From Escherichia phage UoN_LG358_1: DNA of 64,000 nt. Below the pieces are notes generated by a model. It was not told where the DNA came from. It saw only the letters and a list, made by a program, of their open reading frames with translations, and made no database searches. This document shows positions 32,150 through 37,002 of this stretch, piece by piece. Within the stretch, counting starts at the first letter, position 1. Each line of letters begins with the position of its first letter. Made by a program: the position numbers and the translations under genes. The stretch is taken from the sequence record OK570374; one strand, given 5' to 3'.

Positions 32150-32806
32150 ATGGCTTCAAAAATTTCGTTACCAATAACGGATATAATTTTTGGAGTATGG
32201 GACAGAGTTTTTAAAGATAATGCATCCGGGAGGGTTTTAGTCTCCCGGGTTGTTGTTGTAATTATTTTCTTTGTACTTGGATTAGTTTGGTCAAAAAGCG
32301 ATGCAATACTAACCACTTACAGAGATTCGTCTTACGATACGTACGCGAAAATTATACAACAAGAACGCGAATCACGCTTTGAAACAACTGCTCTGGAACA
32401 GCTTCAAATAGTTCACATATCCAGCGGAGCAGATTTCACTGCTGTGTATTCGTTTAGACCCAAAAATTTAAATTATTTTGTTGATTTAATAGCGTATGAG
32501 GGTAGATTACCTTCAACCGTTTCGGAAAAAAGTCTTGATGGTTTCCCGGTTGATAAAACTACTAATGAATATTCTACACATTTAGGAGGAAGAGTTTTTA
32601 AATCATCACAAGAATTTGCTTTTCTACCGTCAAAGAAAAAAACAACTGAATTAAAATACATGTTCAGTTGTCCTTACTTCAATTTAGATAATATATATGC
32701 CGGGACTGTTTCTATGTACTGGTACGATGGAGCTCCAAGTGTAAGCCCGGAACGACTTGAATCGATATGCGGTCAAGCCGCTCGTACATTAGGAAGGTCA
32801 CGTTAG
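32150..32806 (+). CDS. t: holin
   Basis: 218 aa; one N-terminal TM segment; ...LEQLQIVHISSGADFTAVYSFRPKNLNYFVDLIAYEG...CPYFNLDNIYAG matches recalled T4 holin T. Confidence 0.9.
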   Translation: MASKISLPITDIIFGVWDRVFKDNASGRVLVSRVVVVIIFFVLGLVWSKSDAILTTYRDSSYDTYAKIIQQERESRFETTALEQLQIVHISSGADFTAVYSFRPKNLNYFVDLIAYEGRLPSTVSEKSLDGFPVDKTTNEYSTHLGGRVFKSSQEFAFLPSKKKTTELKYMFSCPYFNLDNIYAGTVSMYWYDGAPSVSPERLESICGQAARTLGRSR

Positions 32807-33075
32807 TTGTTTGTGTGCATCGTCAGATGACGATAGATATCTTCAAACCCTTCATTAAATTCTTCAACGAGCATTCCTTTCTCTTCCGCAGTTAAATCAG
32901 AAATTATTTTTCTAAAGCTACTCTGATTTAACTGCTTCCAATTTTTATCATTACTCATTGTTTCATTAATAAAAGCAATAAAGTTATCTCGTTTATCAAC
33001 AATATCATCGCGACCAAATTTAATTAACAAAGACGCAATAGTAACAACTTCACGAGCAACTTCAAACTTAGTCAT
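32803..33075 (-). CDS. asiA: anti-sigma70 factor AsiA
   Basis: 90 aa; ...TIASLLIKFGRDDIVDKRDNFIAFINE...LNQSSFRKIISDLT...EEFNEGFE matches recalled T4 AsiA. Confidence 0.9.
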   Translation of the reverse strand: MTKFEVAREVVTIASLLIKFGRDDIVDKRDNFIAFINETMSNDKNWKQLNQSSFRKIISDLTAEEKGMLVEEFNEGFEDIYRHLTMHTNN

Positions 33076-33125
33076 CTTATATCCTTTAGTATTTAATTTT
33101 TAAATCAGTAAAACAGTATAGAAGT

Positions 33126-33155
33126 ATAGTATCAAAATTTTATGATGTTGTAAAC
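33126..33155 (-). promoter_or_regulatory. T4-type early promoter (GTTTAC-N18-TACTAT), asiA
   Basis: - strand GTTTAC 33155..33150, TACTAT 33131..33126. Confidence 0.6.
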
Positions 33156-33166
33156 GGTTAAGTGAA

Positions 33167-33427
33167 CTAATTTAAAACTTCCCAACGAACCATCAGATGC
33201 TCAGGTTGAGTTACGTACTCATTTCCAGAATTGTTCACTCGAATGGCGTAGCGACCATCAATCATCGAAGCTGATATATACCATTCGGCTCCTACCGGAC
33301 GAATCCTACGTCCCATCCAGTGACAGATTTCCATGGCCTCATGAAAAGAGTAATATTCTTTGTCCATTGCCAAATTAATCATCATAGTTTCAATATAACG
33401 CTGAATTTCTACAGTTTGGTTGCTCAT
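33167..33427 (-). CDS. hypothetical protein (86 aa), in the position of T4 arn
   Basis: ORF adjacent to asiA; identity not established. Confidence 0.4.
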   Translation of the reverse strand: MSNQTVEIQRYIETMMINLAMDKEYYSFHEAMEICHWMGRRIRPVGAEWYISASMIDGRYAIRVNNSGNEYVTQPEHLMVRWEVLN

Positions 33428-33786
33428 AATTTTCCATTCAATTCTTTAGATAAAATATTATCAAAATAAATCACGGCAGCTTCGAGAATGCTTGGATTTT
33501 GATAAGTAGAAAATTTGAAATTGCATCCAGAATAAGACCCTCCCATGTACTTCACCTGAACACCGTATTTTTTATAGACCTTTTCTTCTGCCCTCTCAAT
33601 TTCGTCAGGAAAATCACTTCCAAACTTTCCAAATTTAATTACTTCAGAATTGTGTAAATAACTGTGTTCTGTAACAATATTTTTATGCTTGAAAGTCATT
33701 TGGCTTTCCTTTATGTTTTTGTTTACGTCTGGAGTCATTAGTGGATTTCTTTTTATCTTTATGAAATCCACCTTTGTTAAAATCAT
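33424..33786 (-). CDS. hypothetical protein (120 aa)
   Basis: ORF in operon orientation. Confidence 0.45.
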   Translation of the reverse strand: MILTKVDFIKIKRNPLMTPDVNKNIKESQMTFKHKNIVTEHSYLHNSEVIKFGKFGSDFPDEIERAEEKVYKKYGVQVKYMGGSYSGCNFKFSTYQNPSILEAAVIYFDNILSKELNGKL

Positions 33787-33800
33787 TTTTTGCTACTAAG

Positions 33801-33998
33801 TTATTCAACTAATTTTCCTCTTGCGTTTTTAAGCTGTTTAACTTGGTGAGCCAAATGTTGCAGTGGAATATTTTCCTCTTGGTTAAGATTTCGTCTAATT
33901 AATTCAACAAACCACTCATATTTCGGTCTTTTTGATAATTCAGCTTTAAGCTTAGCATTTTCTTGTTCAGCTATAGTAGCTCTTTGTCTATAATCCAT
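33801..33998 (-). CDS. hypothetical protein (65 aa)
   Basis: ORF in operon orientation. Confidence 0.4.
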   Translation of the reverse strand: MDYRQRATIAEQENAKLKAELSKRPKYEWFVELIRRNLNQEENIPLQHLAHQVKQLKNARGKLVE

Positions 33999-34032
33999 TT
34001 AAAATGCCTTAAGTTTTTAATTTCTTTAATAA

Positions 34033-34404
34033 TTATTTGAACCACATTTTAATTCTCATCCATAGGGATTTCTGAACAGATTTGTTTACCCCATAAGAAC
34101 GAATTACTGGTTGAGATTCTTGTAGTTCCTTATAATCAGCTTTATACACTTCACATGCTGCAGGAATAAATGAACTAATTGCTGCCATAAAGTTTTTACG
34201 TTCGCATAAAAGATTCACTGAACTATCACGAATAATCAAATATTTTCCCGCTTTAACCTTCACAATAGTTCCAAGATACGCGCCATGATACCAAATATCC
34301 CAACCTTCTGAAGTAGGTTCTACACAACGCTGAAGTTCATTCATAATTGCAAAACGGTTCATATATTCCTCACAGTGTGTCAACGGAGTTAATGATAGTT
34401 TCAA
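34033..34404 (-). CDS. hypothetical protein (up to 123 aa; start uncertain)
   Basis: ORF overlapping motA 3' end; an internal Met start would remove most of the overlap. Confidence 0.4.
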   Translation of the reverse strand: MKLSLTPLTHCEEYMNRFAIMNELQRCVEPTSEGWDIWYHGAYLGTIVKVKAGKYLIIRDSSVNLLCERKNFMAAISSFIPAACEVYKADYKELQESQPVIRSYGVNKSVQKSLWMRIKMWFK

Positions 34405-35014
34405 TATTTTCTTGAGTGCGAGCGATATCTAAGTAAATATTTCCATTTTTTGAATGCTTGGCAGTCATACCAAGGTCTTCAAAGTGCTTAACTTGGTCGT
34501 CAGTCATTTTATAACCGGAAATACGGAAGTTACCTTTATTACTAACTTCAAAACTACGAATACCAAAAGTACGTTTTTCGAGAACCGCGATAAAGTTACT
34601 ACGATAAACATCAAGTTTTTTGATTTTGAAAAGTTCTTCTTTAGTTCCAAGAAGCTCCATCATAAAATCTTTATCTGCTTCCATGTCGCCAGTAATTGGG
34701 CGGGCTTTACGAGTATTACGTTTTTCTAAAAGTTCAGGAGCATTTTCCTGCGCATAAAGTACCGCCGCGTTTGAAATGATGTCCTGTGCTTCACCTGTGA
34801 TTACTAAACCATCACCAGATTTTTCAATTAATCCCTTCTTAATCAAAACACCAATATTACTGTTAACTGAAGATGATGTCATTTTATCTTCTAACTGCTC
34901 ACGAAGTTCAGCTGAAGTAACGAAATCTTGTTTAGCGACTTTAACTAAAATCGATGCAGTTTTTTCATTAAGAACATCATTAGAAGCTTTGATGATATAA
35001 GTTACTTTTGACAT
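34370..35014 (-). CDS. motA: middle transcription activator MotA
   Basis: MSKVTYIIKASNDVLNEKTA...NSNIGVLIKKGLIEKSGDGL...AQENAPELL matches recalled T4 MotA; start set at MSKVTY rather than the track's upstream Met. Confidence 0.9.
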   Translation of the reverse strand: MSKVTYIIKASNDVLNEKTASILVKVAKQDFVTSAELREQLEDKMTSSSVNSNIGVLIKKGLIEKSGDGLVITGEAQDIISNAAVLYAQENAPELLEKRNTRKARPITGDMEADKDFMMELLGTKEELFKIKKLDVYRSNFIAVLEKRTFGIRSFEVSNKGNFRISGYKMTDDQVKHFEDLGMTAKHSKNGNIYLDIARTQENIETIINSVDTL

Positions 35015-35052: not shown

Positions 35053-35082
35053 ATAGTAACACAGTTTAAAGCAGATGTAAAC
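35053..35082 (-). promoter_or_regulatory. T4-type early promoter (GTTTAC-N18-TACTAT), motA
   Basis: - strand GTTTAC 35082..35077, TACTAT 35058..35053. Confidence 0.6.
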
Positions 35083-35084
35083 GG

Positions 35085-35363
35085 TTAGTTGTAAAATTTT
35101 ACGATAACTGCATTACCGTCTTTGAAGAGACCGTATTCAACACCATCAATTGTGATGATTTTACAAGGATACAAACAGTTGTTAATGAAAACTTTAGATT
35201 TGCCACGAACTGCTTTAATTTCAGTCCCGACACGGTTTGCATCAACTGTTTCTTTAAAGTTATTGTAGTAAAAACCATCTTCTTTAATTACAGAAACAGT
35301 CATTACACCACCGAAAGAACGATTGAAAGCGATAAGTTTAGTAGCCATAATTTTATTCTCCAA
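35085..35363 (-). CDS. hypothetical protein (92 aa)
   Basis: ORF with early promoter upstream. Confidence 0.45.
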   Translation of the reverse strand: MENKIMATKLIAFNRSFGGVMTVSVIKEDGFYYNNFKETVDANRVGTEIKAVRGKSKVFINNCLYPCKIITIDGVEYGLFKDGNAVIVKFYN

Positions 35364-35397: not shown

Positions 35398-35427
35398 ATA
35401 GTATCAAATCTTAAAGCAGAAGTAAAC
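35398..35427 (-). promoter_or_regulatory. T4-type early promoter (GTTTAC-N18-TACTAT)
   Basis: - strand GTTTAC 35427..35422, TACTAT 35403..35398. Confidence 0.6.
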
Positions 35428-35664
35428 GGCTGAAGTGAAATTTTTTAAAGTTAACCAGAACGGTTTAGAGGAACGCGGAAGAAAGGATGATTAATTATAT
35501 GGACCGGGCTCTAGAATTTACTAGAGCCGTATAGAGTTATAGCAAAATGAAGAGAAGTGCAAGAATAAGGGCTAAACCGCCTAAAACTACGACGATTGAC
35601 AACAACCCAGCCACCAAGACCGGACTCGCATACCAAAGAAAAACCGCTAATGAAATTATCAGAG

Positions 35665-37002
35665 CTATTCGCATAGCTCCTCCAAATCCTTCATAAACTC
35701 AACTTCCGGAGTGGTATCTTTCCAGTACTGATATTCTTTCTTAAGCTCTTTGGCAGCCTCTACGAGTTTTTTGGCTTCATCTGACGTGATGTGATAAATG
35801 TTCATACCAACCAATTTATCAATATGAGCCTTGAACAATTCAGTTTTCTCTAGTTCTGTTACAAGCTGCTTACGAGTTTTTCCTTGAATAACAATTTCGC
35901 CCGAAATCACTTGTTTGATGAATTGAGCTTTAGCTACTGCCAAGTTCAACTGAGTCAAAACGTCTTCACGCTTAAATTCAATTCGTTTTTCAACGAAAGT
36001 CTTACGGACTTCAACAAAATGTTTAATGAGTTCAGACGCTTTTTGAAACTTGTCGTTTAACTTGCCATTTTCGTCGATGACCACAATGAACTGTGAAAGT
36101 TTTTCAATTAATTTGAAATCTCGCATTACAGCATCATGTCGTTTATCTTCGTCTGCAGGTAACCCGTAATCTTTCTTGAATTTTACTTTAAAGCCAAAAC
36201 CGGATTTTGAACAGTCATCCGTATAAGTAATAAAACCTTTGTCTTCTAATGGGTCGAGTACTTTTTCAATGTAAGTATCGCGGTCAAATTTATATGGAAT
36301 TTCACTGATATACATCTGTGTAGCTGAAGTGAATTTATATACACCATGTAATTCAACCCCGCCGTCATCAGTTGGAACTATTTTGCCATTAAATTTTGGA
36401 AATTCAACTTCCGGCTCTTTATCAAGCTTTCCTTGCAAAGCGAGTTTAGTGCATTCTACAACTGACTTAAAACTGTGCGGAAGAATATTAGTTGCATATC
36501 CAGTAGCAATACCACGAACACCATTCAATAATACGGTAGGAATAACCGGAAGATAAAAAGCTGGTGGTGTATGTTCTTCGTCTTTGTGCTTTGGAGCAAT
36601 CTCTAAGTCTTTATAAACTTTACGGAAATTGTCAGAAATACGGCAAAAGATATAACGAGACGCGGCGGCTTTTTGTACTAAACGCGAACCAAAGTTACCT
36701 TGCCCGTCCAATAAAGGGAAATTGTTATTCCATGTATTAGCCATTAATGCCCCTGCGTCTTGAGCAGAGCCTTCACCATGATGATACCCTAAATCAGCTA
36801 CTCCGCCGGCGACTGATGCAAGCTTATGAAATTTTTCTTTATTACCTTTACTGAGGTCCAATGCTCGACGAATAACAAATCGCTGCACTGGTTTAAATCC
36901 GTCAATCATGTTAGGAATTGCACGATTTTCTACCGTGTAGATTGCGAATTCTTTAGCTTCAGTGTCAATAATACTTTGTAAACTTCTTTCATTTAATTGC
37001 AT
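35665..37002 (-). CDS. 52: DNA topoisomerase II medium subunit gp52 (GyrA-like)
   Basis: MQLNERSLQSIIDTEAKEFAIYTVENRAIPNMIDGFKPVQRFVI... matches recalled T4 gp52; start set at MQLN. Confidence 0.9.
   Translation of the reverse strand: MQLNERSLQSIIDTEAKEFAIYTVENRAIPNMIDGFKPVQRFVIRRALDLSKGNKEKFHKLASVAGGVADLGYHHGEGSAQDAGALMANTWNNNFPLLDGQGNFGSRLVQKAAASRYIFCRISDNFRKVYKDLEIAPKHKDEEHTPPAFYLPVIPTVLLNGVRGIATGYATNILPHSFKSVVECTKLALQGKLDKEPEVEFPKFNGKIVPTDDGGVELHGVYKFTSATQMYISEIPYKFDRDTYIEKVLDPLEDKGFITYTDDCSKSGFGFKVKFKKDYGLPADEDKRHDAVMRDFKLIEKLSQFIVVIDENGKLNDKFQKASELIKHFVEVRKTFVEKRIEFKREDVLTQLNLAVAKAQFIKQVISGEIVIQGKTRKQLVTELEKTELFKAHIDKLVGMNIYHITSDEAKKLVEAAKELKKEYQYWKDTTPEVEFMKDLEELCE

Follow-up and report, generated by a model that had tools for sequence, protein, structure and literature searches.

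T-even phages are a reference system for the conflict between phage and host, and most genes of their arn cluster have no known function. The eponymous protein, T4 Arn, is a DNA-mimic inhibitor of McrBC (Pfam PF22134, DM_Arn; PDB 3WX4). A second group relevant here is the Tad2 family, phage proteins that act as sponges for Thoeris, CBASS and Pycsar signals; this family (DUF2829/PF11195) includes SPO1 Gp34.65 (Tad2), HgmTad2, the same protein as AcrIIA7 (PDB 8kbi), and ModTad2 (PDB 9eib). In T2 the genes from arn.4 to arn form one transcript, and functions other than that of Arn are unknown (bioRxiv 10.64898/2026.06.19.733364). Phage ime09, which is T4-like, is annotated in the order asiA, asiA.1, arn, an unnamed gene of 39 amino acids (aa) that is a DUF7230 member, arn.1, arn.2, arn.3, arn.4, motA, motA.1 and 52. 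Here we compared with this arrangement the interval between asiA and motA (positions 33167-34404) in a stretch of 64,000 nucleotides (nt) from Escherichia phage UoN_LG358_1 (OK570374), the whole of which is called the window.

In the window phage Arn has been replaced by other genes, one of which, ORF1, has a predicted fold resembling that of immune-signal sponges. As we read it, ORF1 would combine an N-terminal helix like that of AsiA.1 with a minimal Tad2/DUF2829-like core (alpha1, beta1-beta4, alpha3, beta5) and would be an abundant small early protein able to block a host defence through binding. The likeliest route would be sequestration of a nucleotide-derived immune signal, in the manner of Tad2-family sponges; the pocket would not be the same as in SPO1 Tad2, and the target may be a different ligand or a protein. 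The descriptive parts of this explanation are held with high confidence and the whole of it, an arn-cluster version with ORF1 as an anti-defence candidate of Tad2 fold, has about an even chance of being correct, while the sponge mechanism is put forward tentatively, its chances being short of even. The interval contains five genes, with the following assignments.

33167-33427, minus strand: ORF1, 86 aa, in the asiA.1 position directly 5' of asiA; candidate anti-defence protein with an N-terminal helix and a Tad2/DUF2829-like core.
33424-33699, minus strand: ORF2, 91 aa (trimmed from 120 aa), an orphan confined to Gelderlandvirus, in the position of T4 arn.
33683-33808, minus strand: gene for a highly basic DUF7230 (PF23876) micro-protein, 41 aa, with a TTG start 8 nt after GAGGA.
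33801-33998, minus strand: ORF3, 65 aa, basic (phrog_10768, 1.9e-42).
34033-34362, minus strand: ORF4, 109 aa (trimmed from 123 aa), homologue of T4 arn.4 (phrog_1594, 2.7e-48).

The initial annotation had listed four open reading frames (ORFs) on the minus strand, and their coordinates and lengths were confirmed exactly, at 33167-33427 (86 aa), 33424-33786 (120 aa), 33801-33998 (65 aa) and 34033-34404 (123 aa, TTG start), all with orthologues in seven related phages. The genes nevertheless number five, because a conserved 41-aa DUF7230 gene (33683-33808) is also present, and two of the four are truly 91 and 109 aa long. ORF4 was placed at 34033-34362 because its homologues all begin with MN(R/K) and are 109-114 aa long and because ATG 34362 is preceded by GAGGAA; the TTG extension of the 123-aa frame runs into the end of motA. 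The first 29 codons of the 120-aa frame overlap the DUF7230 gene in a different frame, and of the 12 variable sites in this overlap, 7 are synonymous as read in the DUF7230 frame (17.6% expected, binomial p=0.0018) and 3 as read in the frame of the ORF2 extension (p=0.38). ORF2 is therefore taken to start at ATG 33699, which has AAGGA 7 nt upstream and is the start annotated in most related records. Phage Moon lacks an ORF2 homologue, yet the ORF2 extension still aligns there, an alignment that on this comparison is a shadow of the DUF7230 gene. Neighbouring genes overlap by 8 nt (ORF3 and DUF7230), 17 nt (DUF7230 and ORF2) and through an ATGA (ORF2 and ORF1). Pairwise ratios of nonsynonymous to synonymous substitution rates (dN/dS) against five relatives were 0.03-0.37 across the interval genes and 0.04-0.07 for motA and asiA, values by which all five interval genes are under purifying selection and are more than chance ORFs. 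The annotation is thus corrected by one added gene and two start codons.

An Arn orthologue is absent from the window phage and other genes take its place. None of ORF1 to ORF4 matched PF22134 at E<=1-10, with ime09 Arn as the control giving 4.4e-54, and profiles of ORF1, ORF2 and ORF4 had no match at E<=10 to 3wx4, which was present among the PDB sequences searched. A fold search with the predicted ORF1 model did not retrieve the Arn structure, and comparison of ORF2 with an alignment of Arn and Arn-like proteins (hhalign) gave P=0.35. Net charge is -3 for ORF1 (isoelectric point, pI, 5.5) and +1 for ORF2 (pI 7.8), compared with -9 for Arn and -11 to -16 for divergent Arn-like proteins. Taken together, Pfam, the PDB sequence search, the fold search, net charge and hhalign rule out an Arn identity for ORF1 and ORF2, and no Arn-like sequence was found elsewhere within the 64-kilobase (kb) window. 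The 86-aa ORF had been proposed as the positional candidate for arn, a suggestion that did not hold, as its position is that of asiA.1; it is ORF2 that lies directly after the DUF7230 gene and overlaps it, as arn does, and its 91 aa compare with 92 in Arn. Searches with ORF2 in Pfam, NCBIfam and the PDB sequences gave no match, and candidate likenesses to the FEKKY domain and to Spx were rejected as far below cut-offs. ORF2 forms a single 90%-identity cluster among 5.8e9 proteins and is therefore a genus-restricted orphan, with dN/dS of 0.18-0.28.

The window genes and those of T4-type phages were mapped onto 26 loci, and the ORFs between DUF7230 and asiA were then listed. Across the 26 loci arn.4 lies beside motA and the DUF7230 gene is always present, and the content between these two varies, being either arn.3/arn.2/arn.1 or ORF3. 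By synteny, DUF7230 and asiA enclose a variable slot whose cassettes are swapped between close relatives, with the following contents.

Tequatrovirus (T4-like): Arn (92 aa), then AsiA.1 (50 aa).
RB69-like phages and others: a short AsiA.1-like protein (52-58 aa, MSHNLEN...), alone or after a very acidic protein of 93-99 aa.
Window phage and its genus: ORF2 (91 aa), then ORF1 (86 aa).

Distant metagenomic relatives of ORF1, at 33-43% identity, occupy the same slot. The very acidic 93-99-aa proteins (charge -11 to -16) lie directly after DUF7230 in loci L012 (4521-4802), L015 (4518-4814), L020 (4364-4645) and L023 (4358-4657). They matched the C-terminal half of T4-type Arn in BLASTP at E 0.002 and one another at 6e-15, and on these matches they are divergent Arn relatives; they have no PF22134 match, which shows how narrow the Pfam model of Arn is. 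Of the interval genes ORF1 evolves fastest, with 74% aa identity to its counterpart in phage STP4-a and a nonsynonymous rate (dN) of 0.15, compared with 93% and 0.033 for asiA. Rapid gene turnover and fast amino acid change, as read from these comparisons, would be expected of genes engaged with host defences, though they are no proof of it.

ORF1 belongs to a very small family, with 10 clusters in a large protein collection and 10 matches among 1.84 billion representatives, three of them spurious. Long repeat proteins (P0017, P0018 and P0020) were rejected as relatives because their scores were spurious sums of matches to Tudor/Agenet or PKD repeats, and matches to EgtB/SenA were far below cut-offs. 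A model built with AF2 (AlphaFold2) from an alignment of 10 sequences (predicted local distance difference test, pLDDT, 87; predicted template modelling score, pTM, 0.74) has helices at residues 3-20, 28-38 and 75-78 and strands at 41-44, 51-56, 59-64, 69-70 and 82-85. From residue 28 onward this predicted structure follows the published element order of Tad2, that is alpha1, beta1-beta5, and alpha3 in the beta4-beta5 loop. Judged on the model, ORF1 has a Tad2/DUF2829-like fold: after alpha1 comes an antiparallel sheet of beta1-beta5, and alpha3 sits in the loop between beta4 and beta5. The initial annotation was to give way if homology tied the ORFs to unrelated known functions; on this measure the fold of ORF1 points to a different known class, that of the Tad2 immune-signal sponges. 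The broader idea of an anti-defence gene at this locus survives.

The sequence relationship to DUF2829 was assessed in a single test set beforehand, a profile-profile comparison of the ORF1 family with real PF11195 proteins. Against 42 such proteins hhalign gave P=0.0056 over 21 columns with a probability of 6.5%, and against 103 (67 of them from viral contigs) it gave P=0.0023 over 63 colinear columns, which span the whole core, with a probability of 12.7%. In the alignment 'ySF.EAm.iCHw.GrrVr' of ORF1 is paired with 'mnFGEAi.aLK.G.rVaR', and 'T.P.Hi..rWEV' with 'SQTDmLAeDWe.V'. This profile alignment is weak alone, and its register agrees with the independent structural match.

Several results weigh against placing ORF1 with Tad2. 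The hhalign probability is only 6-13%, none of 14 ORF1-family members matched PF11195 at E<=10, a hidden Markov model (HMM) of DUF2829 run against all window ORFs (hmmsearch) returned noise only, and Foldseek found nothing in the PDB for the ORF1 model. ORF1 lacks helix alpha2, which in Tad2 lies in the beta2-beta3 loop and forms the dimer interface, and its core of about 60 residues is small enough to leave room for convergence. The ligand of SPO1 Tad2 is held mainly by W25 and N26 (in the GWNGK loop), W73 and D79 (bioRxiv 10.1101/2023.05.01.538930). In the profile alignment the GWNGK loop falls in a gap in ORF1, no residue clearly corresponds to W73 (Y71 is a possibility), and D79 aligns with a variable E/G/D position, so that the set of contact residues W25, N26, W73, D79 and T78 is not conserved in ORF1. 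The ORF1 family has invariant residues of its own (A31, C35, H36, R59, Y60, E70, T73 and W82), and, relative to Tad2, an extra N-terminal helix of 20 residues. Because the ligand residues are not conserved and alpha2 is missing, and because of these invariant residues and the extra helix, ORF1 is not filed as a member of the Tad2 family. Proteins of that family bind 3'cADPR, His-ADPR, N7-cADPR, cUMP/cCMP and cGAMP in different pockets (bioRxiv 10.1101/2025.08.24.671296). The family having diversified across signals and pockets, a re-modelled pocket in ORF1 is not disqualifying, and with such a pocket the ligand is not predictable. No paper connecting Tad2 with T4-type phages came up in a literature search.

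A rival explanation is convergence, in which the likeness to Tad2 arose independently in a small alpha/beta domain and the five genes are ordinary lineage-specific early genes for host takeover, with other or dispensable roles. The missing Foldseek match, the failure of Pfam to recognise ORF1, an hhalign probability of at most 13% and the small core all suit this explanation, as does the lack of detectable relatives of known function for ORF2 and ORF3. We consider it unlikely, although with a substantial share of the probability; if ORF1 is not a sponge, the interval would be an ordinary block of lineage-specific early genes.

The position and N-terminus of ORF1 raise another explanation, in which it is an elaborated AsiA.1 that would pair with or modulate AsiA, sigma-70 or MotA in the takeover of transcription, with the beta-rich core serving as a protein-binding module unrelated to immune signalling. 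ORF1 lies directly 5' of asiA, in the asiA.1 position, a linkage that is strict even at 33-39% identity. ORF1-family members from Moon and from metagenomes begin with MSHNLE(N/S)VVE, compared with MSHNLEKVIE in T4-type AsiA.1, and the family member P0012 is identical to T4-type AsiA.1 at 8 of 10 N-terminal residues (pairwise E 2e-4). A gene that begins with MSHNLE.V.E, either AsiA.1 or a member of the ORF1 family, was observed directly 5' of asiA in loci L002 (1498-1650), L007, L010-L016, L020 and L023, and the N-terminus of ORF1 in the window (33400-33427) carries a degenerate form of the motif, MSNQTVEIQR. These N-termini suggest a common ancestry for the N-terminal helices of AsiA.1 and the ORF1 family. 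That the Tad2 ligand residues are not conserved also speaks for this explanation. However, the likeness is confined to the first 10 or so residues (hhalign P=0.49), AsiA.1 did not match phrog_7272 (the ORF1 family) and ORF1 did not match phrog_3762 (AsiA.1), and AsiA.1 is itself without known function. In lineage L030, moreover, two other genes lie between the ORF1 homologue and asiA, and asiA has its own promoter. We therefore regard this explanation as improbable. A third explanation makes ORF1, or ORF2 if position is taken strictly, a functional analogue of Arn, acting as a DNA-mimic inhibitor of restriction of the McrBC type. In its favour both genes lie in the T4 arn slot, and ORF2 resembles arn in its length and its overlap with DUF7230; the DNA-mimic mechanism is already largely refuted, and this explanation is very improbable.

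The sponge-like reading of ORF1 can be extended to a more general proposal, which we offer as speculative and rather doubtful. The ORF1 family may be an unrecognised, minimal and highly divergent branch of the Tad2 fold, confined to T4-type enterobacterial phages, in which an AsiA.1 helix is fused to a DUF2829-like core whose pocket, without the WNG loop and with C35-H36, R59-Y60, E70 and T73, would serve a different signal or target. The slot from DUF7230 to asiA in Tevenvirinae would then be a site for exchangeable anti-defence cassettes that include Arn, hyper-acidic Arn-like proteins, Tad2-like proteins and orphans such as ORF2. The slot could serve as a positional rule for finding more counter-defence genes in Tevenvirinae, and ORF1, with its Tad2-like fold in the slot that holds Arn in T4, provides one new lead, a testable anti-defence candidate.

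The DUF7230 gene, found at every T4-type locus examined, is a conserved anchor of the arn cluster. The 41-aa protein matched Pfam DUF7230 with 32.8 bits (gathering cut-off 27; E 7.5e-8) and phrog_1359 at 1.4e-18, and is strongly basic (pI 10.4, 12 K/R in 41 aa). The peptide MNNLVAKhDFNK..vHKDKKK.....RKQKHKGK is kept in T4-like, RB69-like, Moon-like and S16-like phages, and in 25 loci the gene has an ATG, GTG or TTG start, each with a Shine-Dalgarno sequence. Few small genes in the arn cluster are as well conserved between genera. A likeness to the ribosome-rescue factor ArfA, noticed by eye in the K-rich 'KDKKK...RKQKHKGK', was rejected after hhalign to E. coli ArfA gave P=0.2 over 7 columns; the DUF7230 profile had no match at E<=10 among PDB sequences, ArfA chains included. 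A literature search found no paper that mentions DUF7230. In Salmonella phage STML-198 (JX181825) the loss of 1 nt from an A6 run shifts the frame after codon 7, so that the gene continues into the extended ORF2 frame; this may be an error of homopolymer sequencing or a genuine inactivation.

ORF4 is 71.6% identical to ime09 Arn.4 over 109 aa and its homologue lies directly 3' of motA in the same position in 19 loci, and on both counts it is the homologue of T4 arn.4. PF26821 (Phage_T4_Y16F) was assigned to an ORF4 homologue in a precomputed annotation. The GenBank label "anti-restriction nuclease" on Arn.4 homologues is misleading. ORF3 is 75% identical to its counterpart in Citrobacter phage Moon, with dN/dS of 0.03-0.05, and is absent from phage SEA1; searches of Pfam and NCBIfam gave no match. 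The initial annotation could assign none of the ORFs by sequence, which was borne out for ORF1 (86 aa), ORF2 (91 aa) and ORF3 (65 aa), none of which has a named function in any library searched, and was superseded for ORF4. ORF2, ORF3, Arn.4 and DUF7230 yielded no clue to function, which counts against the main explanation.

Other differences between relatives lie close by. Seven relatives have, between motA and their arn.4 homologue, a gene of 51 aa with 100% aa identity that is absent from the window. In the relatives (L001, L004 and L006 among them) direct repeats flank this gene, made up of the ribosome-binding site and start (GAGGAAtTATGAAC ... GAGGAAGTATTATGAAC), of which the window has a single copy at 34357-34372 on the minus strand. 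This arrangement suggests gain or loss of a cassette through recombination between gene-start repeats. Phages CGG4-1 and STP4-a have an extra 75-aa gene, an arn.3 fragment, that is also absent from the window.

The window phage is a T4-type phage like Salmonella phage S16, of the genus Gelderlandvirus, as indicated by 92-94% nt identity to phages S16, CGG4-1, Melville and others over 2.5 kb around the interval. Read along the minus strand, with falling coordinates, the order is gene 52 (topoisomerase subunit), a 92-aa ORF, motA, the interval and asiA, and beyond asiA the plus strand carries the holin gene t and glycine-rich gp38. The Pfam matches of the two flanking genes confirmed that the ORFs lie between asiA and motA. 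These and the other features of the surroundings are the following.

32803-33075, minus strand: asiA, 90 aa, downstream anchor (Pfam AsiA, 2e-25).
33126-33154, minus strand: early-type promoter upstream of asiA (consensus TTTACA-17-TACTAT with TG).
34370-35014, minus strand: motA, 214 aa, upstream anchor (Pfam MotA_activ, 6.8e-47; MotCF, 4.2e-36).
35053-35081, minus strand: promoter of T4 early type upstream of motA (TTTACA-17-TACTAT with TG), with a MotA box, TGCTTTA, inside it at 35067-35073.
35085-35363, minus strand: 92-aa ORF flanked by gene 52 and motA; the CGG4-1 annotation also has an ORF here.
35412-35418, minus strand: MotA-box core upstream of the 92-aa ORF; a third early-type promoter was read here by eye, and the consensus scan did not list a promoter.

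MotA of the window is 97% identical to S16-type MotA, and the 92-aa ORF gave no match in Pfam, PHROG or NCBIfam. The initial annotation had put arn and motA.1 of T4 at this place; the interval is indeed the counterpart of the arn neighbourhood, whereas motA.1 lies beyond motA, beside gene 52, in the T4-type order. T4 motA.1 encodes a predicted membrane peptide. In the window an extremely hydrophobic 45-aa ORF (35537-35674, minus strand) overlaps the 3' end of gene 52 and is a positional analogue of motA.1, with no detectable sequence similarity to it.

The five small genes would be read together with motA, right after infection, from the early/middle promoter upstream of motA. Consensus scans of 33100-34400 on the minus strand found no terminator-like site and no MotA-box core. 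Because the five genes are tightly packed or overlap, they are probably translated from a motA read-through transcript in the early and middle period; this co-transcription with motA is probable on consensus scans only, which tempers that part of the explanation. It agrees, by analogy, with the single "arn transcript" of T2. The 64-kb window has 45 copies of the MotA-box core TGCTTYA, compared with 28.4 +/- 5.5 expected; 0 of 100 shuffles reached 45, and this excess is consistent with many middle promoters in the segment.

ORF1 departs from the Tad2 family in having no Pfam match, no alpha2 and no GWNGK loop, and in its extra N-terminal helix and its own invariant residues. With T4 AsiA.1 it shares the position and the N-terminal motif. 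T4 Arn has the same neighbourhood, and ORF2 has its position relative to the DUF7230 gene and nearly its length; unlike Arn, ORF1 and ORF2 show no sequence or profile similarity to it and no acidic DNA-mimic charge, and the predicted fold of ORF1 differs. Like the T-even arn cluster, the window phage keeps arn.4 (72% identity, beside motA) and the DUF7230 peptide, and co-transcription is probable, whereas in the remaining places it carries ORF3, ORF2 and ORF1 instead.

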